From positions 62,008 to 126,007 of the forward strand of contig JBJOKS010000014.1 of the NCBI GenBank assembly GCA_046045965.1: DNA of 64,000 bases, read 5' to 3'. Both the position numbers and the translations under genes were made by a program. The first letter of the stretch is position 1. The number at the start of each line of letters is the position of its first letter. Below the pieces are notes generated by a model that did no database searches, was not told the origin of the DNA, and saw only the letters and a program-made list of their open reading frames with translations. Positions 1 to 9,580 of this stretch are shown here, in pieces. Source of the stretch: Cyanobacteriota bacterium (lineage in GTDB: Bacteria; Cyanobacteriota; Cyanobacteriia; Cyanobacteriales; Nostocaceae).

Positions 1-1652
1 CAAAAAGTCAAAGATTCGAGAAATTTTTCATGCTCTTGACACCATGCAATTGCTGTTTGTAAATTATCATATTCAGCAACGAAGTAATCCATATACTCAT
101 ATTCATACCAATCTTTGTGATCCTTTTTTCTGTATCCTTGAGAAAATTCTAAATACCAATTAATCCATCTTTCTCTTGCTTGCTGCTCAAAAACAGGATT
201 ATTTGTTAATTCAGTAGATACATAATTACGAATTAGAGGTAAAGGAATTTCGTAACGATTTTCATCATACTTAATTAACAAGCGATCTTCTAATAATTGC
301 AAATCCTTGTTTATTTTATCATCATCTGTTACGGTAAGTGCAACATAAGCGATCGCATCTCGCAAAGCAGGTTTAGGAAACATCACCAAAGCCATTAATA
401 AATCATAAGCAGAAGCAGATTCTTCCTTTAATGATTTTAATAAAAATTCCTCTTTATTTGGCAATTTACTTAAACAATTATCATGCTGCAACTGATTCAG
501 AGCATCAATAATTAACCCCGGTATCCCACCAATAATATCTTTTATTTGTTGATATTGGTTTGGTGTAAGATTAACACTTAATTCTTGAGCTTTTTCTGTG
601 ATAAAAATTCTCGTGTCTTCTGCTGAGAGAATTTCCAGATGTAAAGGATGACCTAGCTTAGTTCTTCGACGTGATGTAATTAAGATTTTCACATTAGAAG
701 GCATTTGTTCAATTAGTGACTTAATATCTTGTTTATCTGCCTCAGTTTCCACATTATCTATAATTAACAGAGTATTGATGTTTTTAAATTTAGCAATAAT
801 CTTTTTTAAGAGTTGCTCTTGATTGGACTCATTAATAATTTTTTTCTTAATTTCCAAAGTAAGTGCAATGTCTTTATAAACATTCTCTAAATTAGATTCT
901 CGACTCTCACAATGTTGCTGTTGTTTAATAGAAGTAAAAATAAAAGCATCAAACATTGGTAAATCCAAGCTGTGATTACTCTTTCTAGCTTGTAAAAAAC
1001 GCAAAGCAGCTTCTTTTACTAGAGTAGTTTTACCAAAACCAGGCAAGGCAGTTATACTAATTATAGGTATATAAGGATTATCAATTAAGTTTAATAATTT
1101 TGTAACTTCTGTTTCCCTAGCAATAAAATTATTATAATTTTTGACTAAATTACTGTAAATAATATCTTTTCTGCTTTCTGCTAATTCTTGCCAATTTGTT
1201 AAACCTAAAACATGACAATAAGCTATAAAAGCAAGTTGATTAATGAATAAACCACGTACAAAGCTATTCCAAGTTCTATATGATATTCCCGTAAAATATA
1301 TTTTCCTGTCTTCTATTAAATCTTCTATAGTTTTATAGAAAGAAATTTTGCGTTTCTGTTGATTTTGAAAAAGTTTAATCTTTATCAGATTAAAAAGTCT
1401 GGCTCTTTCTGAATTAATCTTGGTTCTATCATCCTTACTTACGTTAACTAGAGGCACAAAATAATATTCAAGTTCGTTATACCATCTTTGATCATTTTCT
1501 CCCCAATTATTTTCCCTTGCATGTTGTGCCATTAAAAACTTGGAAGCTTCACGGAAAGGTGCATTTTCCATTGTATATTCTCTGTCTTGTCTAGCCGCTT
1601 CAACCTCTTTCCGTTTCCCTTCAAGTACCCTGAAAGTTTCCACTACAAGCAT
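1..1652 (-). CDS. NB-ARC/STAND ATPase with N-terminal HTH-like domain (partial, runs off the window start; absent from the ORF track)
   Basis: Manual translation from ATG 1652 is open to the window edge: MLVVETFRVLEGKRKEVEAARQ...GISYRTWNSFVRGYFINQLAFIAYCHVLGLTNWQELAE...FIARETE...ISITALPGFGKTT (Walker A)...LLIIDNVE (Walker B)...ILITSRRR...GGIPG (GxP-like)...ARERWINWYLEF. Confidence 0.85.
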   Translation of the reverse strand, partial: MLVVETFRVLEGKRKEVEAARQDREYTMENAPFREASKFLMAQHARENNWGENDQRWYNELEYYFVPLVNVSKDDRTKINSERARLFNLIKIKLFQNQQKRKISFYKTIEDLIEDRKIYFTGISYRTWNSFVRGLFINQLAFIAYCHVLGLTNWQELAESRKDIIYSNLVKNYNNFIARETEVTKLLNLIDNPYIPIISITALPGFGKTTLVKEAALRFLQARKSNHSLDLPMFDAFIFTSIKQQQHCESRESNLENVYKDIALTLEIKKKIINESNQEQLLKKIIAKFKNINTLLIIDNVETEADKQDIKSLIEQMPSNVKILITSRRRTKLGHPLHLEILSAEDTRIFITEKAQELSVNLTPNQYQQIKDIIGGIPGLIIDALNQLQHDNCLSKLPNKEEFLLKSLKEESASAYDLLMALVMFPKPALRDAIAYVALTVTDDDKINKDLQLLEDRLLIKYDENRYEIPLPLIRNYVSTELTNNPVFEQQARERWINWYLEFSQGYRKKDHKDWYEYEYMDYFVAEYDNLQTAIAWCQEHEKFLESLTF

Positions 1653-1673
1653 ATATAAACCCTGTTCCCTGAC

Positions 1674-1708
1674 CAAGATCACTTAGTATTCCATTTTAAC
1701 TGATCTTG
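1674..1708. promoter_or_regulatory. Palindromic operator-like site 1, CAAGATCAC-N17-CTGATCTTG
   Basis: Perfect 8-bp inverted repeat CAAGATCA/TGATCTTG between divergent genes; same motif at 2864 and 8343. Confidence 0.7.
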
Positions 1709-1774
1709 TTGGCTGCCAAGTCAATTGTGAAAATAAAAACAAGGTGTCTACATATATGTCAGGAGTTTACATTT

Positions 1775-2077
1775 ATGGCTCGTGTGGATTGGAATGGTCC
1801 GGTTTATCACTCTAAAAACGGGCGTTACTACTGCTATGGTACTGATAGGGATGGTAATAAGCATATTTTAGATGGGGATAGTCAGCGAGATTTGCAAGTA
1901 AATTATCTTGGTGAACTATCACCAGGTGGACTTCATGATCATCACTACACAAAAAACGGTAGGTGGTACACCCAGACACGAGTTGATACTGGACATCTAT
2001 TTAATGATGGTGGAGTTGCGAGCGATGCAGGTGGATATTTAGATCATCTGTTTGATGAGCTAAAAAGGTTAGGCTAA
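1775..2077 (+). CDS. Small (100 aa) hypothetical protein with an internal duplication
   Basis: AGGAG RBS precedes ATG 1775 (track start 1706 overlaps the operator); repeats YHSKNGRYY and HYTKNGRWY. Confidence 0.7.
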   Translation: MARVDWNGPVYHSKNGRYYCYGTDRDGNKHILDGDSQRDLQVNYLGELSPGGLHDHHYTKNGRWYTQTRVDTGHLFNDGGVASDAGGYLDHLFDELKRLG

Positions 2078-2125
2078 CTCTCAACTGATTATATACCGAG
2101 GATGTATCTATAAAACTAACCTAGT

Positions 2126-2149
2126 AGGGGTTTAGCATTGCTAAACCCT
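2126..2149. repeat. REP-like palindrome GGGTTTAGCATTGCTAAACCC
   Basis: Hairpin visible directly; degenerate copy at about 16138-16161. Confidence 0.6.
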
Positions 2150-2186
2150 CTAATCTTGAACAAAAATTATTTTACAGGTCAAGGAA

Positions 2187-2726
2187 ATGCACATAGCAAC
2201 CTCCCAGCGAAAATACATCTTTTTCTGTCTCTTCTGCATTAGTTCCTCACTCGTTATTAGTGGGTGTGCTAATACATCAATTGCCAAGCCTATTTCCGAA
2301 AGTGATCCTCTATTAACACAGAGGTCTTTAGCTCTTGTATTAACGATTATATTGGGATTTATACAACTTGGAATTTTATTGATTAAAAACCCCCAAGCTC
2401 CACAAGTTGGAGAGGCTTGGTTTCAGCAAAATATACCCTCAGTCATTGCAATTCCATTAATATGGTCAAAACTGGGTGAATGGGGTTATATGATTTCCAA
2501 TTGGTTATTCAACCTATGGAATCCTTTGGTGTTGATATTGGGATTTTTTAATGGTGTACTTGGAAATGTAGGACTAGCTCTATCTTGGATTGTATTATTT
2601 GGGTTTGTTTTCCCTTCACCAGATTTATTCGCTTGGGCAGTTTTACCAACATTAGCAGGTTTAATTGTCAACTTATTTTTACTAGCTTTTGCAAAAACTG
2701 GTAATAATGCAGGAGGTAATTCATAA
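2187..2726 (+). CDS. Hypothetical multi-pass membrane protein with possible lipoprotein signal
   Basis: Hydrophobic leader ending LVISG-C, followed by 4-5 hydrophobic segments. Confidence 0.7.
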   Translation: MHIATSQRKYIFFCLFCISSSLVISGCANTSIAKPISESDPLLTQRSLALVLTIILGFIQLGILLIKNPQAPQVGEAWFQQNIPSVIAIPLIWSKLGEWGYMISNWLFNLWNPLVLILGFFNGVLGNVGLALSWIVLFGFVFPSPDLFAWAVLPTLAGLIVNLFLLAFAKTGNNAGGNS

Positions 2727-2863
2727 ATACCTTGCATAGCAGAAATATAGTCAGGTTGGGTTAAGCAACAGCACAACCCAACTACAACTACAACTTTGAT
2801 TATTTTAGGGTTACTTGCTATAAGAAATAGCAATTATTCAATAGAGCAGTTTTTATAATTTGT

Positions 2864-2898
2864 CAAGATCACCAGTAACTAGCGCATAGGTGATCGGA
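2864..2898. promoter_or_regulatory. Palindromic operator-like site 2, CAAGATCAC-N17-GTGATCGGA
   Basis: GATCACC...GGTGATC inverted repeat with the same spacing as site 1; ends 66 nt before ATG 2965. Confidence 0.7.
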
Positions 2899-2964
2899 TT
2901 TTCTATATACAGAATTTGTGCAACGTGCCAAAATTATTACAACAATGAACCTTGAAAACAAAAT

Positions 2965-4044
2965 ATGACTTTGAACTTTGATAAAAAGCGTGAAGAAGGT
3001 TTCACAGAAGTATTGTTAGCACCTGTTAAAGCAATAATAGGTGATCCTAAAGAACTCTACGGTGAATATTACGTTACCGACGAGATCAAACAGTCTGCTA
3101 AAATTACAAATTCTGCAATTGTAATTAGTAACAATATTGACGGAATCAGTCTAATACCACTGCTGCAATTTTCTTTTTCTGATTGGGGCGATTACAGTCT
3201 ACCAGCAGCTATTTTTCTAGCTGCACTGATTACATATTTTGCCAATATCACTGGAACTGCTACAGCTAAACGCAAACCAGGTAATATTATTTGGTCAATG
3301 TCTGCTACTGCTGGTTTTCTAGCAATGAACGCACTCATGACTATGACTACACCAGTTGCTCCTGAACTCACTTTAAATCAACACGGACTAGCAGAAATGC
3401 GAGCTAAAGAATTAATTGAAATTAAGGAACAAGAAGTCAAGGAGAAGATTAAACCCAGTGCTGAAGGATTAGTAAAATTAAACCAAGTTGAAACCGAATG
3501 TAAACGTTTAGAAAATGAACTAAAAAAATACCCCAGAGGCAGTGTACAGCGTAATGATTTTTATATTAATGCCTATGGAGAATACAGCAAAGTTCGTAGT
3601 AATTATAACTGGAGTGCTGTTCCAGAAGGTAAAAGACCTGTATGTGCAAATGCCAAAATTTTAAATCAAGAAATTCGGGAATCAGCTATACAAGCACAAG
3701 AAATTTGGGCGCGTCAAAAGCAAAAAATTCTTCTTTCTGCTAGTTATGTAGTTGGTATTCGCAATACCTTACCTGAGCTTTATGAACAGGAGTTTAACGA
3801 AAAAGGAGAAGTAAATTCAGGAATAGTAAAAGCACGTTTAGCGATTGAAAGTACATATACTAAATTAGGACAAGGAGAGTGGACAAACTTAGGATTTAGT
3901 ATTTTTTGTTTTGCTTTATCTATCCTTACTTCCATCTTTTCTTGTGCTATGGCAATATCCCACTCTATGAGAAAAGATGTACAGATGAGTTTTGATGAAT
4001 CTTTACCTATTGCTCTGGAAGAGTTTTGTCAAAACGACTACTAA
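2965..4044 (+). CDS. Hypothetical membrane protein: N-terminal TMs, coiled-coil soluble domain, C-terminal TM (DUF4407-like architecture)
   Basis: Hydrophobic segments near aa 60-130 and 310-330 flank a charged helical region; family is inferred from architecture only. Confidence 0.7.
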   Translation: MTLNFDKKREEGFTEVLLAPVKAIIGDPKELYGEYYVTDEIKQSAKITNSAIVISNNIDGISLIPLLQFSFSDWGDYSLPAAIFLAALITYFANITGTATAKRKPGNIIWSMSATAGFLAMNALMTMTTPVAPELTLNQHGLAEMRAKELIEIKEQEVKEKIKPSAEGLVKLNQVETECKRLENELKKYPRGSVQRNDFYINAYGEYSKVRSNYNWSAVPEGKRPVCANAKILNQEIRESAIQAQEIWARQKQKILLSASYVVGIRNTLPELYEQEFNEKGEVNSGIVKARLAIESTYTKLGQGEWTNLGFSIFCFALSILTSIFSCAMAISHSMRKDVQMSFDESLPIALEEFCQNDY

Positions 4045-4162
4045 AATTACTCGGCTAATATTTAGCATTTATCGGGGAATCACGCCTGTAGATAAAATCA
4101 CATAGGCTGATTTTTTAACACTTAATTCAATTTTTTCTTTTTTTAGTTCAAGGGTAATCTAT

Positions 4163-4861
4163 ATGCGTGAAATGAATCCACAACGCCGGAATAATGTTGC
4201 TAATTTATACCCCGTTAATTATAAAGGTTATATTAGGATAGACGTTCTCAAGCTTTATTTGCAAACTGGTGAATGTAATGATCCTCGACTCAAGGGAATA
4301 TTACTCCGACTACATCAAGGGGAAACTTTACTTTCACCAAAAAAAGCAGAAGATTTGCTGAAAAAATTGTCTACAAGTTTAAAGTTGATTAATATAGTAA
4401 CATCAGAATTACTAGGAGAATCTATCCCGCAAGTAGAAGCACTAGGACAACTACAATGTGAAAATGAAAGCTTTTGCTTGGAGGTTGAGACAAAAATTAG
4501 AGAAAATTTGCAAGAATTAGATTTCTTTCTTAATCAATTGTTGGAAATTAACAAAAAGTATGGATATTTAGCTTATGATACTCAACCAAAAAAACATCCT
4601 CAGAATTTAGAAACATTTCAAGAGAACTTAGATGAATCTAAAGAATTAGTGAAAACAATTTCTTATATTCAGCGTTATCTCAATTATCAATTTAATACAA
4701 CTCAATCATTATTTGACCGCACTGCTTACCCTTTAGCCTATTTTCTAAGGATTCGCAAATATTTGGAGATATTACCAGGAGAATGTCGGAGTTTAGCAGC
4801 TATAACTCGTCAAGCTATAGCAAACCGTGTTCCAGGAACTGAATCTGATAATTTAACTTGA
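4163..4861 (+). CDS. Hypothetical helical protein
   Basis: 232-aa ORF, Leu/Glu-rich, adjoining or overlapping the next gene. Confidence 0.7.
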   Translation: MREMNPQRRNNVANLYPVNYKGYIRIDVLKLYLQTGECNDPRLKGILLRLHQGETLLSPKKAEDLLKKLSTSLKLINIVTSELLGESIPQVEALGQLQCENESFCLEVETKIRENLQELDFFLNQLLEINKKYGYLAYDTQPKKHPQNLETFQENLDESKELVKTISYIQRYLNYQFNTTQSLFDRTAYPLAYFLRIRKYLEILPGECRSLAAITRQAIANRVPGTESDNLT

Positions 4862-5523
4862 AGGAATTTAACTATATGTTTAGAGGGTTAAGAAAACAAT
4901 TAAATCGCCCTAGTAGAAAAAATTTTGCAGTAAATACAAGTTTACACACATCAATCACAACTCTTACAGATGACCAATTTAAACAGCAGTTCAACAATGG
5001 TAAGAGAAACTTTTCCGGTTGTGATTTTCGTCAGGTTAGAAATCATACTTTAAGAGAAGTTTCACTTCATGAAGCTAATTTGAATCAGGCTATTTTTAGT
5101 GGAATGCAACTGAATAAAATTAATTTTGAAAATGCTAGTCTTTATCAAGCAAAATTTGTAGGTGCTAACCTAGCAGGAGCGAATTTAATTAGAGCAAATT
5201 TGAGTGAAGCTGACTTATCTAATGCTAACTTGGCAGATGCTTATCTAATTAATGCCAATTTATCAGAAGGTTGTTTGTATAAAGCGCAACTTCATTGTGC
5301 TAACTTAATGGGTGCAAATTTGAGTTATGCTAACTTAAATTCTTGTAGTTTAACCTGGGCAGATTTGAGTGCAACTACTCTATGTTGGGCTGATTTACGC
5401 AACACTAATTTAAGTGATGCTGACCTTTATGGTGCAGATTTACAACACGCTGATTATGGTTTTACAACTATTATCAAATCACGGATTCAAGGTTTAATCA
5501 CTCTCAATAAGAAAACCAGATGA
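4858..5523 (+). CDS. Pentapeptide repeat protein (start may be ATG 4876)
   Basis: A(N/D)LxG/A pentapeptide repeats such as ANLAGANLIRANLSEADLSNANL. Confidence 0.9.
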   Translation: MKEFNYMFRGLRKQLNRPSRKNFAVNTSLHTSITTLTDDQFKQQFNNGKRNFSGCDFRQVRNHTLREVSLHEANLNQAIFSGMQLNKINFENASLYQAKFVGANLAGANLIRANLSEADLSNANLADAYLINANLSEGCLYKAQLHCANLMGANLSYANLNSCSLTWADLSATTLCWADLRNTNLSDADLYGADLQHADYGFTTIIKSRIQGLITLNKKTR

Positions 5524-5557
5524 CAAAATAATCTAGCAATTCTCAAACCTTGGAGAA

Positions 5558-5585
5558 GTAGAGATGTTGTATACAATATCTCTGC
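5558..5585. repeat. REP-like palindrome between convergent genes (possible terminator)
   Basis: GTAGAGATGTTGTATACAATATCTCTGC imperfect hairpin. Confidence 0.5.
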
Positions 5586-5602
5586 TCCATCAACAGATAT
5601 TT

Positions 5603-6946
5603 TTATTTTATAAACAACCGTCTTCTTTCCTGAATCAACACTTTAAATAATGCCACTATTCCATAAATACCTAAATTCCTAATCAATCTCAACCACTCAA
5701 ATAAATTAGCTGATTTCTTCCTATGTATTCTCACTAAATGCACACCAGCATCCGCAGCAGTATTTATGTATTTTTTCATTTTAGCTATTTTTAACAATTT
5801 TAAAAATTCATGAATCGCATTATCCCAATCTCCTAAATATTCATAAATTCTCGCTCTATTTGCTAATACATTAGCTAACTTCTTTTCATTAAAATCTATT
5901 TGGAGAAAAAGCTTTTCCGCTTTATCTAAATAAGTATATGCTGCTGAAAAATCAGGATTTTTGCATTTCATAGCAACAGCACCAGCTAACAAATAAATAG
6001 TCCCTTCTGATTCAGGATATGCAGCTTGAGTAAATCCACTGGTTGTTTCTTTGGTTTCTGTAAATTTAGTAATTGCTGTTTCTAATAACCTGCGGGATTC
6101 ATCAAAATTACCTTTTTTATATTCCAACCAACCCAAACCATAAAAAATCAAAGATAAAAAATATAAATTACCCGTACTTTCAGAAACTTCTTTACCTTCA
6201 ATAAAAGTTAATTCTGCTTTAGCTAAATCATTGACGTTCAAATAAGCAACACCTAAACTATACAAAACCCTACCTAAATCAAAAATATTACCAAGCTTCC
6301 GTAAAATATCAGCAGCTTCTAAATAACTAGATATAGCTTTTTTACTTTGATCAAATCTATCATAGCAACTCCCTAAATTCAGCAAAGTATTTGCTTGCTG
6401 ATAAAGATTATTTTGTTGTTGAAATAAATCTAATGCTTGTTGTAAATGCCATTCTGCTTCTTGAGATTTTTGTGAACGTTGTAGAGTAATACCTGCACCT
6501 AAATGGTTAAAAGCTAAAAATTCCTGATTATCAAATACACGACTAGCTAAAATTCCTTGTTCATGATATTTCAACGATTCTGTAAATTGACCTTTTTCTT
6601 CTAAATAACGTCCTAAAGCACAAAATAACCATGAACCATCTTTATCCACACCTTTAGCAATTTCTTGTTGTACCCAATTTCCCCAATCTCGATAATCTTG
6701 ACTAACTTCACAATAGTAAAATAAGGCTTGACAAAATTTACGCTGGTTAATATTATTAACATCATCAATCATATTATCAAACACAGCACGAAAATCTTGA
6801 ATAACTTGGTTGATATCAATATTTGCTGAACTGTGATTACCAAACAGAAGTTGATTATATTGATAAGCTTGAGTTACCCAGTGATCTGATAATTCATCGT
6901 CAGACGACTTGAAAAAAGCACGCACATCAAAAAGATTATTACTCAT
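5603..6946 (-). CDS. Tetratricopeptide repeat protein, putative sensor partner of the upstream STAND ATPase
   Basis: Multiple TPR-like units (ANTLLNLGSCY, GRVLYSLGVAY, LIFYGLGWLEY); start overlaps the STAND stop by 8 nt. Confidence 0.85.
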   Translation of the reverse strand: MSNNLFDVRAFFKSSDDELSDHWVTQAYQYNQLLFGNHSSANIDINQVIQDFRAVFDNMIDDVNNINQRKFCQALFYYCEVSQDYRDWGNWVQQEIAKGVDKDGSWLFCALGRYLEEKGQFTESLKYHEQGILASRVFDNQEFLAFNHLGAGITLQRSQKSQEAEWHLQQALDLFQQQNNLYQQANTLLNLGSCYDRFDQSKKAISSYLEAADILRKLGNIFDLGRVLYSLGVAYLNVNDLAKAELTFIEGKEVSESTGNLYFLSLIFYGLGWLEYKKGNFDESRRLLETAITKFTETKETTSGFTQAAYPESEGTIYLLAGAVAMKCKNPDFSAAYTYLDKAEKLFLQIDFNEKKLANVLANRARIYEYLGDWDNAIHEFLKLLKIAKMKKYINTAADAGVHLVRIHRKKSANLFEWLRLIRNLGIYGIVALFKVLIQERRRLFIK

Positions 6947-8285
6947 ATTGTTCCCTCAAAGTTTCTCCAAAATAACGAGCGGTAAAAGAGTGTAAAGAAA
7001 CTTGTTTATTAGAACCAATAGGAGTAATTTCAATCAACGAAAGCTGATATAACTTTCTAATTGATTCATCAACAACTTGACTAGATAAACCTCCTAAGCC
7101 ATATAATATACGAATAGGTACTGGTCTAGACCTCGTAGCTAAATACAGCAGCAACTTTTGAGTATTAATTGCATTTTCTTGTTGTAATTCTTGCCAGTTA
7201 TCTTCAAACAAATAATTATATAATTGTTGTTCTTCTGATAAATTTTGCAACCGTTGAATAATTCTATCTATATCTAATTTACCAGCTTGACTGACCACTA
7301 ATTTCATCGCTAGTGGCATACCATCAGTAATTTTAACCAGTTCATCAATTTCTCCTGGCGTGGCTTTGAGAATCGGATTTTGACTAGGTAGTAAATATTT
7401 TTCTTCAGAAATGACTTGAATAAATTCTCTTGATACCTTTTGATTTAATTTAGATAATGCCAATTCTGTAACATCAGCATCTATTCTTCGACGACTGGTG
7501 ATAATTAAAGAACTTTTTCCTAAAATACTTTGTAATTCTGCTGCTAAGACTCTAGGACTTTCGGCATCTTCTAAACCATCAATAACTATTAACCAAGGAT
7601 GTGAATTAAGAATTCTAGTAATTTCTATTCTGAGTAAATCTGGTTGTAACAAGATATGATTTGGTAATTGTAGCTCTTTACCTATTTCTTGTAAAGCATC
7701 CTCAAATGATAAACGATAAGCCCGATGAGATGCTAATTCTCCTAAACCTTCTGATTGATATTGATATATTTTTGCCCTTACCCAAGCAATTTTTGTAAAT
7801 ATTTTTTTATGATAAGCTTGAGATACTAACTGATGACAAAAAGCAGTTTTTCCTAATCCTCCAATACCCGTAATACTAAATATTGTAGATTGGTTTTTTG
7901 ATTCTAATACCTGAAGAATCTCTTGTAAATCATCACTACGTCCAATAAATTGTTGATATTTTTTCTCTAGTTGCCAAGTTAATAAATTTGATGTGTGTTC
8001 TGTGTCTTCATCATCATTTTCTACTTCTAACATTGCTAAGGGATCAGTATCAACAATATCCTCCCAATTTTCAATCCCTACAGCTTTACAGATACCAATA
8101 AAAGCATCTCTATTTACTGCTTTCCCTCTTCGGAAACGCCCTAATGTTGGTTCAGAAACATTAATACCAGCAATATCACTAGCAATATCACACCATGAAA
8201 GTGATCTTGCTGTCCAGCCCTTCTTTTTTCTCTCTATTTCAACTTTTTCTAAACCTTCTTGAGATGCTTTGAGAGTAACTGCCAT
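6939..8285 (-). CDS. NB-ARC/STAND ATPase with N-terminal HTH-like domain, lacking C-terminal repeats
   Basis: FIGR motif, GIGGLGKT Walker A, LIVIDGLE Walker B, IITSRRR, GMPLAM, terminal LHS (MHD-like); N-terminus VSEPTLGRFRRGKAVNRDAFIGICKAVGIENWEDIVD. Confidence 0.9.
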   Translation of the reverse strand: MAVTLKASQEGLEKVEIERKKKGWTARSLSWCDIASDIAGINVSEPTLGRFRRGKAVNRDAFIGICKAVGIENWEDIVDTDPLAMLEVENDDEDTEHTSNLLTWQLEKKYQQFIGRSDDLQEILQVLESKNQSTIFSITGIGGLGKTAFCHQLVSQAYHKKIFTKIAWVRAKIYQYQSEGLGELASHRAYRLSFEDALQEIGKELQLPNHILLQPDLLRIEITRILNSHPWLIVIDGLEDAESPRVLAAELQSILGKSSLIITSRRRIDADVTELALSKLNQKVSREFIQVISEEKYLLPSQNPILKATPGEIDELVKITDGMPLAMKLVVSQAGKLDIDRIIQRLQNLSEEQQLYNYLFEDNWQELQQENAINTQKLLLYLATRSRPVPIRILYGLGGLSSQVVDESIRKLYQLSLIEITPIGSNKQVSLHSFTARYFGETLREQYE

Positions 8286-8342
8286 ATTGATCCTAGTATT
8301 TTTATGTAATTTCAGAAATGGATACTACTTCTCATTCTTTGT

Positions 8343-8377
8343 CAAGATCACAAACAATCCTATTTTAGCTGATCGTG
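8343..8377. promoter_or_regulatory. Palindromic operator-like site 3, CAAGATCAC-N17-CTGATCGTG
   Basis: Between the divergent STAND and PEP-CTERM genes; shares TTTGTCAAGATCAC with site 2 and ATTTTA(A/G)CTGATC with site 1. Confidence 0.7.
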
Positions 8378-8565
8378 CTAAATGACACAAAATAAGTTAA
8401 AAAAAATTTATACCGCCAACTAGCTACTACGAATAAACGGTTAAGTCCAACTTTAATGACTTCATTTTCCCCTGTTTACCAGGGGAATACTAACAGAAAT
8501 TAATACTTGTCAAACTAGCCACAAAATCATCCTAGTCACAATTATTAAATACAGGAGTTTTCAAC

Positions 8566-9522
8566 ATGAAAAAGTCAACATTTTTAACTTACGGTTCTAG
8601 CCTAGTAATAGCTACAAGTTTAGCATTCACGAGTGGACAAATAGCGGCAGCAGGACAGAATATCAATGGTTGGAATAAGTCAATAGACTCCAACAATGAT
8701 AGTTTGTCTAGAACTCCTGGAACTGACATATTTGAAATGTATGTGATGGGAACAAAAGAAGATGAACAATTTTTCTATGTAGCAATTAATGGCAACTTAC
8801 CTGTCACAGGTTTAGATACTGGAAATCAAGTATGCAATACAAGCACTGGGCAATGTTTTAATGTTAGTAACCAAAACATTGGTTATGGTGATTTATTCCT
8901 AGATTTTTCTGGTCAAAATAACTTTCTCAATGCTAGTAATTCTCGTAGTTTAATAGGTGTGAGATTTGCTCCTAATAACGATTCTAAAGTTTCTGGTACA
9001 GGTATTTTTGATTATGTAAAAGCTACAGATGTGGAAAGAGAAAACGCTGGTTATTGGAACTTCGGAACTCACAATCAAATTGTTACTCAACAAGGTGGTA
9101 CTGCATCATTAGGAGATTTAGCTTGGGATGATCCTTATTATGCACCATATAATGGTTCTTTTACCTCAAATCCTATCCCTAATGTAATTGAATCAGGTAA
9201 TAAAATAGGTGATATTACCATGTTAAATAGTGCAGAATTAGCTGCTGCCGGATTTGATTTAAGTTCTTTATCTCAAATAGGTTCAGAAACTTTTGGTTTC
9301 AAGTTTTCCAAATCTCTGTTACCTATTGGTAAATATCTTGCTACTTTGATTTTGGAATGTAATAATGATGCGATCGCACTCCGAGGAGAAACAACTAAAA
9401 TAACTGTACAACCTCCACAAGAAGTACCTGAACCTTCTACTATTTTTGGAATCATGACAACAGCGTTAATTTTTGCAGCAACCAAATTTGGTAAACTCCG
9501 TAAATTTGAATTGAGTAAATAG
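8566..9522 (+). CDS. PEP-CTERM exosortase-dependent surface protein (resembles the cyanobacterial XDD3 type)
   Basis: Signal peptide; C-terminal VPEPSTIFG + TM + basic tail; core motifs YVAINGNLP, IGYGDLF, ECNNDAIAL. Confidence 0.85.
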   Translation: MKKSTFLTYGSSLVIATSLAFTSGQIAAAGQNINGWNKSIDSNNDSLSRTPGTDIFEMYVMGTKEDEQFFYVAINGNLPVTGLDTGNQVCNTSTGQCFNVSNQNIGYGDLFLDFSGQNNFLNASNSRSLIGVRFAPNNDSKVSGTGIFDYVKATDVERENAGYWNFGTHNQIVTQQGGTASLGDLAWDDPYYAPYNGSFTSNPIPNVIESGNKIGDITMLNSAELAAAGFDLSSLSQIGSETFGFKFSKSLLPIGKYLATLILECNNDAIALRGETTKITVQPPQEVPEPSTIFGIMTTALIFAATKFGKLRKFELSK

Positions 9523-9540
9523 CAAAATTCAACGATATCA

Positions 9541-9580
9541 AACTCCTGATTTATTTAGTAAGTCAGGAATTTAATTTTTT
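9541..9580. terminator. Hairpin terminator between convergent genes
   Basis: TCCTGATTTA...TAAGTCAGGA followed by a T run. Confidence 0.55.

Follow-up and report, generated by a model that had tools for sequence, protein, structure and literature searches.

What do the NLR-like ATPases of cyanobacteria do where no enzymatic effector accompanies them? Such proteins, of which cyanobacteria have more than most bacteria do, are commonly taken for immune effectors, and a gene island in a Nostocaceae genome raises the question directly. The island reaches into the left end of the window, a 64,000-nucleotide stretch of contig JBJOKS010000014.1 (positions 62,008 to 126,007), for which an earlier note had proposed two STAND ATPases with helix-turn-helix (HTH) heads, a shared palindrome and a probably transcriptional output. 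The HTH head, the missing effector and the operator-like palindrome stand up to analysis; the single programme with a conserved gene set does not. We put at about 0.7 the probability that the STAND proteins of this island are locally acting, ligand-gated transcription factors that resemble AfsR and MalT but use another DNA-binding fold. Because a DNA-binding head is combined with a box found three times in the genome, they are most likely signal-triggered switches of their neighbors rather than direct phage killers. The XRE-headed class of cyanobacterial NLR-like proteins now has a predicted operator and target gene, which makes its function directly testable, and a reporter could reveal what the sensors detect.

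An operator-like box beside STAND genes

STAND1 (1..1652, minus strand) and STAND2 (6939..8285, minus strand) are both NB-ARC ATPases, as had been proposed, and score 39.7 and 42.3 bits against a Pfam cut-off of 23.5. The window holds the 5′ two-thirds of STAND1, which comprises a predicted XRE-type HTH with two insertions followed by the NB-ARC domain, and the gene continues leftward into tetratricopeptide repeats (TPRs; 812 aa in total, L001:17214-19652). STAND2 consists of a predicted XRE/Cro HTH (residues ~1-80), an NB-ARC domain and a winged helix, and carries no sensor. The palindrome is real: in the 5,292,358 bases (5.29 Mb) of the genome searched, three of the eight exact GATCA-N19-TGATC sites lie in the island, at 1677, 2867 and 8346. 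The extended form CAAGATCAC-N(15-19)-TGATC occurs three times in the genome, each time with N17 and each time in this island. The chance of at least three boxes in 9.5 kb is about 1e-7 when one word and spacing are considered, and 0.004 after correction for 41 spacings x 1024 words. As a genome-wide baseline, at least two upstream GATCA half-sites are present at 16% of 3254 genes, and a pair at 0.4%.

Site 1 (1674..1708, half-sites 1677-1705) reads CAAGATCA-N19-TGATCTTG, a perfect 8-bp inverted repeat between STAND1 and a 100-aa gene, with its GATCA 25 nt from the STAND1 ATG. Site 3 (8343..8374, half-sites 8346-8374; CAAGATCAC-N17-CTGATC) lies between STAND2 and a PEP-CTERM gene, ~60 nt from the STAND2 ATG. 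Site 2 (2864..2895, half-sites 2867-2895; CAAGATCAC-N17-GTGATC) is a secondary site that has no adjoining STAND gene and is located 70 nt upstream of a three-gene operon.

Two features of the boxes are recorded in their own right. The hexamer TTGACA, read toward the STAND gene, abuts the proximal half-site at window positions 8340-8345 and 2861-2866 and at 23 of 88 W-class loci, and in homologues it is often just 16-32 nt from the start; as a -35 element it was rejected, since no -10 element follows at 16-18 nt. In addition, GATC lies inside every half-site and the genome encodes a D12-class adenine methylase (L306), so that binding could depend on methylation.

Half-sites across cyanobacteria

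A profile of the head, searched against 201 genomes of the family and 201 of the order, found the XRE-headed class in 121 and 111 of them, respectively. When 301 genomes were searched with the box pattern only, 23 matches were recovered versus 6 for the reversed pattern used as a control, and the pattern was present in 17 of the genomes. Twenty distinct box sites lie outside the source genome: nine just upstream of the start of a divergent XRE-STAND gene, seven inside coding frames and four elsewhere, these last including a second site behind a STAND1 orthologue and one before a paralogue of a cargo gene. Three of the 20 sites, all in genome G211, helped to shape the pattern, and without them seven of 17 are at XRE-STAND starts. 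Secondary sites akin to site 2 were found in G211 and G642. Among STAND1-type relatives, four (L047, L048, L075 and L076) have GATCA-N16..19-TGATC adjoining the start. The NB-ARC-TPR core common to STAND1 relatives bears XRE, LuxR-like or other HTH heads in different genomes, and among 25 relatives with LuxR-like or other heads none has the pair, with GATCA occurring at 0.04 per 300 nt.

Half-site usage was compared with the recognition helix in two samples, with rates given as half-sites per 300 nt upstream and the Gly-type defined by an S-x-G-T recognition helix. The first set comprised 90 upstream regions from a family search (30 returned loci and 60 picked among the matches listed, with 57 matches beyond these). 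The held-out set comprised 86 loci from an order-wide search: 26 returned loci that remained once three of the window's family and one used before had been removed, and a run of 60 consecutive matches with lower scores, all in other families and again among the matches listed (66 lie beyond). In the first set, Gly-type loci (n = 42) carry GATCA at 1.74 and GCTCA at 0.50, and Ala-type loci (n = 32) carry them at 0.38 and 1.78; coding controls give 0.22 and 0.31. The held-out rates are 1.75 and 0.43 for Gly-type (n = 28) and 0.30 and 3.62 for Ala-type loci (n = 47). At least two GATCA half-sites are present at 27 of 42 and 16 of 28 Gly-type loci, and at one of 32 and three of 47 Ala-type loci. 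Permutation after clustering gave p = 0.0005 at 70% identity and 0.007 at 60% for the first set, and p < 0.0001 at 70% for the held-out set. In the short-HTH class, Lys or Arg at +3 goes with GGCTCA (2.26, n = 70), and Asn or Ser at +3 has GGCTCA at 0.0 (n = 8) but G[TC]NTCA-type words at 3.5 versus 0.54. With the tested columns masked, 106 of 115 rows of a tree were concordant (61 tied or other-residue rows excluded), and the independent pairs on the tree amounted to 2.1 in the same direction and 0.0 in the opposite one. These comparisons support the view that the palindrome behaves as a cognate operator across cyanobacteria, and operator type appears to follow HTH lineage.

Half-sites in arrays phased at 10 bp occur at L075, L076 and many Ala-type loci. 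Four Ala-type regulators (L243, L253, L212 and L215) have long tandem GGCTCA arrays with up to 19 half-sites per 300 nt, and their spacing of ~9-12 bp suggests binding by an oligomer.

A predicted XRE/Cro-type DNA-binding head

The earlier note had taken the N-terminal module for an HTH, and structure comparison bears this out for STAND2. An AlphaFold model of residues 1-82 (predicted local distance difference test, pLDDT, 89; 14-row alignment) retrieves XRE/Cro folds nearly exclusively, with HipB, C.AhdI, P22 c2 and CapH among the top Foldseek and VIA rows; VIA gave Z up to 6.6 and a root-mean-square deviation of ~2 with 58-67 residues aligned. The head also has a weak PezA match (E 0.026). 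The modeled fold thus argues that this module of STAND2 is an XRE/Cro-type HTH, and for STAND1 we infer an XRE-type head from the alignment alone. No SARP domain (OmpR-type plus BTA) was matched at the STAND N-termini in Pfam or NCBIfam.

The module was also said to be shared by the two ATPases, and the segments quoted in support, which correspond to the recognition helix and the next helix, do align (BLASTP E 6e-14, 23% over 326 aa, from that segment on). In the 14-row alignment the shared module begins at residue 1. Inserted sequence is indeed present in this module of STAND1-type proteins, but as two insertions and not the one that had been described.

STAND ATPases with fused or separate sensors

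The sequence left of the window, which had been suggested as a check, shows that STAND1 (start ATG 1652) is complete in the genome, with fused C-terminal TPRs as repeat sensor, and that the island extends ~6.4 kb beyond the window and includes a third HTH-STAND, STAND3. The Walker A motif of STAND1 is atypical (ALPGFGKT, first Gly lost), and its MHD-latch position reads LPL, the same as in most aligned relatives. In the closest STAND1 orthologue (L047:8-2128) the Walker A motif has degenerated to SCAFFSKT and the TPR region is shorter, but a 9-bp perfect operator repeat is present.

STAND2 has Walker A GIGGLGKT, Walker B LIVIDGLE, GMP, and LHS at the MHD position, where the His is kept. The open reading frames listed earlier were all located at their places, but that list omitted the 447-aa gene TPR447 (5603..6946, minus strand), which would encode the arm and TPR sensor of STAND2 separately and whose start overlaps the STAND2 stop by ATGAGTAA (8 nt). 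This NB-ARC/TPR gene pair is retained in G465, G478 and G211. A complex model of STAND2 residues 101-448 with TPR447 scored 0.65, versus 0.00 for the best of three controls, and so passed a mark reached by 116 of 157 solved pairs and by 2 of 215 mismatched ones; the runs share 70% or more of their contacts, and partner pLDDT is at least 83. In the modeled interface the winged helix of STAND2 packs against the first 62 residues of TPR447, the position expected for an arm domain. The model supports TPR447 as the probable sensor partner of STAND2, with the caveat that the halves of a split gene may pass through resemblance to solved structures.

STAND3, an XRE-headed NACHT, and a 1050-aa WD40-TPR gene (L001:11633-16178, window about -6367 to -1822) are split by the same ATGAGTAA overlap as STAND2 and TPR447. 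The array upstream of STAND3 is GGATCAGTTTGGGATCAGTGATCC and contains three GATCA half-sites in a different layout. The Walker B of STAND3, VDALDE, fits the NACHT signature D[GAS]hDE, and the corresponding IIDNVE of STAND1 and VIDGLE of STAND2 do not. Divergent from STAND3 is a GRDP-like gene (PF07173, L001:16364-16963), and GRDP genes recurrently adjoin STAND genes (G147, G184, G211, L077 and L078).

Pfam, NCBIfam and PADLOC scans found no nuclease, TIR, SIR2 or peptidase domain in the three STANDs; for STAND1 and STAND2, the Pfam and PADLOC results agree with the earlier statement that no nuclease, TIR or SIR2 effector is visible. No PADLOC family was matched by STAND1 or STAND2 at E 0.001, and STAND3 gave a weak STAND_TPR match (E 4e-12).

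A model for the island

We propose that one-component regulator modules are stacked in the island, each composed of an XRE head, a STAND ATPase and a repeat sensor, with the sensor either fused (STAND1, TPR) or encoded in the next, overlapping gene (STAND2 with TPR447, STAND3 with WD40-TPR). The HTH would bind GATCA half-sites in dimeric or oligomeric form. Ligand binding by the TPR or WD40 sensor would drive ADP/ATP exchange and alter operator occupancy, as in AfsR and MalT; the XRE heads would then engage or release the paired half-sites, resetting transcription of the divergent cargo and probably of the STAND gene itself. Of the STANDs, STAND1 is the likeliest to read all three N19 sites, as the same site design recurs in its orthologues; it would then act as a small master regulator that controls both the 100-aa and the 179-aa gene, the C3a124-helical-pentapeptide operon and the STAND2/PEP-CTERM promoter. 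STAND3 is a possible reader too, since its upstream region holds half-sites of the same kind. The output is likely to be a stress- or contact-induced change in membrane and surface proteins, and our guess is that cargo is activated and the regulator auto-repressed.

A bolder version of this model seems to us possible but doubtful. A large, unstudied class of NLR-like proteins in cyanobacteria would consist of programmable transcription factors, having an XRE head with a readable code that relates helix residue to half-site base, an exchangeable sensor, often with a gene of its own, and exchangeable cargo. Here one such receptor would have taken control of an incoming membrane operon and a second receptor at their promoters, creating an NLR-to-NLR cascade that induces the C3a124-helical-pentapeptide defense or antagonism module when an invader is sensed, possibly gated by GATC methylation.

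A number of observations weigh against the regulator model or its parts. The GATCA pair is missing in three STAND1-type relatives (L077-L079), the 300 nt read for STAND2's G211 orthologue (Gly-type, 75% identical) contain no half-site, and half-sites are absent at 5 of 42 and 4 of 28 Gly-type loci in the two sets. The held-out p rises to 0.054 at 60% clusters, and at 50% clusters the first set is reduced to one clade per state. The tree gives just three (supported) to five independent pairs, for which a sign test is not significant (p 0.5), and the +3 switch represents one or two independent pairs. Because independent pairs are so few, it is lineage that operator type tracks, and a residue-level recognition code is plausible. 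The recognition helices of the window's own STANDs have Arg, Pro and Ser at the tested position, and the Gly/Ala rule therefore assigns none of them. The fold scores of the head are middling (best Foldseek E 0.01; best VIA Z 6.6, below the tool's bar of 8), Pfam HTH_26 reaches 17.9 bits versus a cut-off of 22 and matches 4 of 14 members, and STAND1 folded at full length without an alignment gave a pLDDT of 37 and was not used. The Walker A motif is altered in STAND1 and in one G211 orthologue. Finally, a sigma-70 promoter scan returned 28 signals versus 41.8 in shuffles, that is, fewer.

Alternative explanations

It is conceivable that the STANDs are anti-phage sensors of the Avs or bNACHT kind, with a main output other than transcription of the neighbors: the HTH would serve autoregulation only, or arrest the cell by binding DNA or partners, and the cargo would be incidental. 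bNACHT proteins, which are most numerous in cyanobacteria, defend against phage (10.1101/2022.07.19.500537), type III CRISPR cassettes were the setting in which C3a124 was defined (PMC6546367), and the island is variable and low in GC; moreover, STAND3 has the NACHT D-A-L-D-E signature and its weak PADLOC match. However, none of the three STANDs has an enzymatic effector, and autoregulation alone leaves unexplained why site 2 precedes a cargo operon without a STAND gene beside it; G211 and G642 have similar secondary sites. Cargo in the family is also often metabolic or secreted (PNPOx-family, GST, GNAT, DUF4347 and peptidoglycan-binding proteins, from the 41 of 71 divergent genes scanned). 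We consider this explanation unlikely.

Alternatively, the island could be a decaying mosaic at a hotspot, with regulators partly dead and sites that are relics lacking present function. Such decay would fit the 3′ remnants of TPR447 that are all G001 and G184 retain of it, the lost Gly in the Walker A of STAND1, and the finding of C3a124 in none of the other sampled genomes of the window's family (0 of 27 and 0 of 36). Nevertheless, every reading frame of the island is intact, and RNA-library contigs overlap parts of STAND1, the 100-aa gene, STAND2 and the PEP gene, although this evidence is weak and DNA is a possible source. One such contig corresponds to 1746-2101, including the 100-aa gene, with zero differences (again weak evidence), and single RNA records in X2 span site 1; these are contigs only and give no strand, start or level. 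Furthermore, the three sites, in unrelated intergenic regions, share 9+5 bases and spacing, which suggests selection after arrival, and one of them precedes an operon whose 29 other copies have no pair. We regard a relic as quite unlikely.

Least probable, and very unlikely in our view, is that some other, unlinked regulator reads the box, or that the box serves as a signal for methylation or recombination, so that XRE-STAND genes are targets and not readers: the GATC of the half-sites is the target of the near-universal cyanobacterial methylase DmtA (PMC4390886), this genome has its D12-class methylase and the TTGACA flank is conserved, but an extended box found three times in the genome, with the pattern in 17 of 301 genomes, is unlike a global regulon, and the half-site varies with the helix of the neighboring protein, as in G573, where the STAND3 orthologue has a different helix and AAGTCA/AACTCA repeats.

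Relation to known systems

The regulator model places the island STANDs nearest to AfsR, the SARP-NOD-TPR protein of Streptomyces. In AfsR the NOD and TPR hold the DNA-binding domain inhibited until ATP binds (PMC10936776; 10.64898/2026.09.02.748808), and in MalT and GutR activation comes from an inducer together with ATP (PMC10936776). The likeness to AfsR extends to an N-terminal DNA-binding domain, an NB-ARC-type NOD, an arm, a TPR sensor and a short repeated box at the target promoter, and TPR447 has a weak match to the AfsR model (E 3e-10). However, the DNA-binding domain here is of predicted XRE/Cro type and not SARP, the half-sites are inverted and 19 nt apart rather than 11-bp direct repeats, the sensor is often a separate gene, and the cargo is local and divergent. 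In addition, the F/Y-HD (MHD) latch described for AfsR (10.64898/2026.09.02.748808) has lost its HD in STAND1, whereas STAND2 keeps the His.

The HTH of MalT is C-terminal and LuxR-type, and MalT binds arrays of sites, which the 10-bp-phased half-sites of L075, L076 and many Ala-type loci resemble. Unlike MalT and GutR, XRE-STANDs are mobile and multi-copy, with swapped heads and cargo. Because the DNA-binding fold and box design differ, we place XRE-STANDs outside the AfsR and MalT families.

An Avs protein combines an N-terminal enzymatic effector with a match to an Avs profile. The tripartite effector-STAND-repeat layout of Avs and bNACHT proteins is recognizable in the island, and STAND3 is a NACHT; the differences are the absence of nuclease, TIR, SIR2 and peptidase domains, the absence of a PADLOC system match for STAND1 and STAND2, and the presence of the operator-like box. 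The NACHT effector types of Kibby et al. include DNA-binding domains, for which these authors suggest that the response is transcriptional; they also report NACHT proteins in 58% of cyanobacteria with up to 23 per genome (10.1101/2022.07.19.500537). PADLOC STAND_TPR (PDLC01173), an ATPase fused to Xre-HTH and TPR from Streptomyces cas1-less I-E loci, has the same domain order and is matched weakly by STAND3; however, STAND1 and STAND2 do not match it at E 0.001, and the island is without a cas match. According to Kaur et al., work on bacterial STANDs has dealt mainly with their role as transcription regulators (PMC7159879), and the part of PMC8195603 drawn on holds nothing closer to the cyanobacterial XRE-STAND class. 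Our literature search found no account of this class or its operator; supplements lay outside the search, and the domain tables of Kaur and Kibby may list HTH-STAND fusions.

Cargo exchange and the setting of the island

The island spans 15.9 kb, of which the window covers the right part, has a GC content of 33% versus 38% genome-wide, and is flanked by a CBS-domain gene and mutT. These two genes are adjacent, without an island, in G249 and G211. Between them G001, of the same genus, has only a 120-aa remnant of TPR447 (its 3′ part); G184 has a TPR447 3′ remnant and, next to mutT, a different XRE-STAND accompanied by a GRDP gene; and G002 has unrelated genes at the locus. On this comparison the CBS/mutT locus is a hotspot. 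A terminator-like hairpin between the PEP-CTERM gene and mutT (9544..9568, plus strand) marks the right border, although terminators as a whole are no more numerous than in shuffles.

The suggestion of one coherent, co-evolved programme does not survive comparison with other genomes, in which the genes are absent as a joint set. In G211, orthologues of STAND1, TPR447 and STAND2 (45%, 73% and 75% identity, the last lying across two contig ends) keep the same arrangement around a 55-aa zinc-finger gene and not the window's five genes. In G249, an XDD3 PEP-CTERM homologue (42%) lies behind the same box, opposite a different, split XRE-STAND. Neighborhood conservation, proposed as a check, likewise fails: the membrane operon goes with STAND3 in G573, its companions at other loci are WYL, CHAT/DUF1822 or CRISPR genes, and both small genes are near-orphans. 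The island therefore reads as a mosaic of regulator-cargo modules in which cargo has been swapped between genomes.

More generally, the gene upstream of the XRE-STAND diverges from it at 71 of the 90 loci in the first set and at 73 of the 86 in the held-out set. Of 41 among those 71 divergent proteins that were scanned (near-duplicates skipped), 19 have a Pfam match, to PNPOx-family, GST, GNAT, DUF4347, peptidoglycan-binding, vWA, GRDP and other families, and many of those without a match are small and secreted-looking.

The window's own cargo begins with a 100-aa soluble orphan (1775..2077, plus strand), divergent from STAND1, for which one homologue was found (86%). It had been described as a repeat protein, but has merely two imperfect copies of H-x-[ST]KNGR[YW]Y, a motif of 7-9 residues with 5 of 7 identical (E 0.007 for a single comparison). 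Next is a near-orphan 179-aa membrane protein (2187..2726, plus strand) with four hydrophobic segments, the first ending in ISGC, which we take to be lipobox-like. Divergent from STAND2 is an exosortase-dependent PEP-CTERM surface protein of the XDD3 family (8566..9522, plus strand), which scores 184 bits for NCBIfam NF041930 (cut-off 80) and, for the PEP motif at its C-terminus, 18.1 bits with TIGR02595 (cut-off 16).

At other loci, a STAND1-type regulator (L075:1-4206) faces an RHS/YD-repeat protein of more than 1400 aa, and another (L048:4442-9878) faces an operon of DnaJ-like-TPR-RDD, coiled-coil and Hsp70 genes. The largest XRE-STAND clade sampled (L085-L109, ~1200 aa) is mostly divergent from a PNPOx-family gene and once from a GST gene; the PNPOx-family gene is a conserved target of this clade, with a likely role in detoxification.

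The C3a124 membrane operon

Behind site 2 is a conserved operon of three plus-strand genes, which encode a 359-aa membrane protein of the C3a124 family (2965..4044), a 232-aa helical protein (4163..4861) and a pentapeptide-repeat protein (4858..5523). This unstudied operon is present in 58 of 401 order genomes (counted by the C3a124 family) and is kept under several kinds of signal-responsive regulator. The 359-aa protein matches PADLOC C3a124 at E 1e-61 (profile positions 34-357 of 371). That family, cluster 124 of type III CRISPR accessory proteins, is without a known domain (PMC6546367). In contrast to its defining context, C3a124 heads a three-gene operon here and in most of the loci seen, at a distance from cas genes. 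It adjoins cas genes at L011 (Csx3, APE2256) and L304 (Cmr2), and no cas match was found among the 12 island proteins scanned. An atlas search gave a weak DUF4407-like lead for C3a124, and 30 long relatives included one CHAT fusion and one weak MadL match; none of 18 candidates in viral contigs was a relative of the 359-aa protein. A homologue of the helical protein is behind or fused to C3a124 in 27 of 29 other loci, and atlas searches with it named no family. The pentapeptide protein was considered as HalA (Hailong) and rejected, its match (E 3e-4) covering the repeats only, with no channel domain or HalB-like partner among the scanned island proteins.

No GATCA pair is present upstream of the operon in the 29 other loci. 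The window's copy is sister to that of G573 (100/100, long branch), which diverges directly from a NACHT gene whose product shares 58% identity with STAND3 and which is accompanied by its WD40 partner, and this arrangement suggests that STAND3 and the operon probably arrived together. Between them now lie the GRDP gene, STAND1 and two small genes, and the operon has a STAND1-style site. Elsewhere the operon adjoins AAA_33-WYL, CHAT/DUF1822, NACHT-associated or CRISPR genes, neighbors that hint at defense or stress.

Several smaller observations concern the operon in other genomes. Its divergent neighbor is often a kinase-like AAA_33 gene that matches WYL weakly (L012, L278, L299 and L302), and a 633-aa long form at L303 is C3a124 fused to the helical protein. 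Small Cys-rich membrane genes (~80 aa) precede the operon at L277, L286, L290 and L295 and also face Ala-type NACHT regulators at L152, L156 and L159, a resemblance, judged by eye only, that suggests a shared cargo pool.

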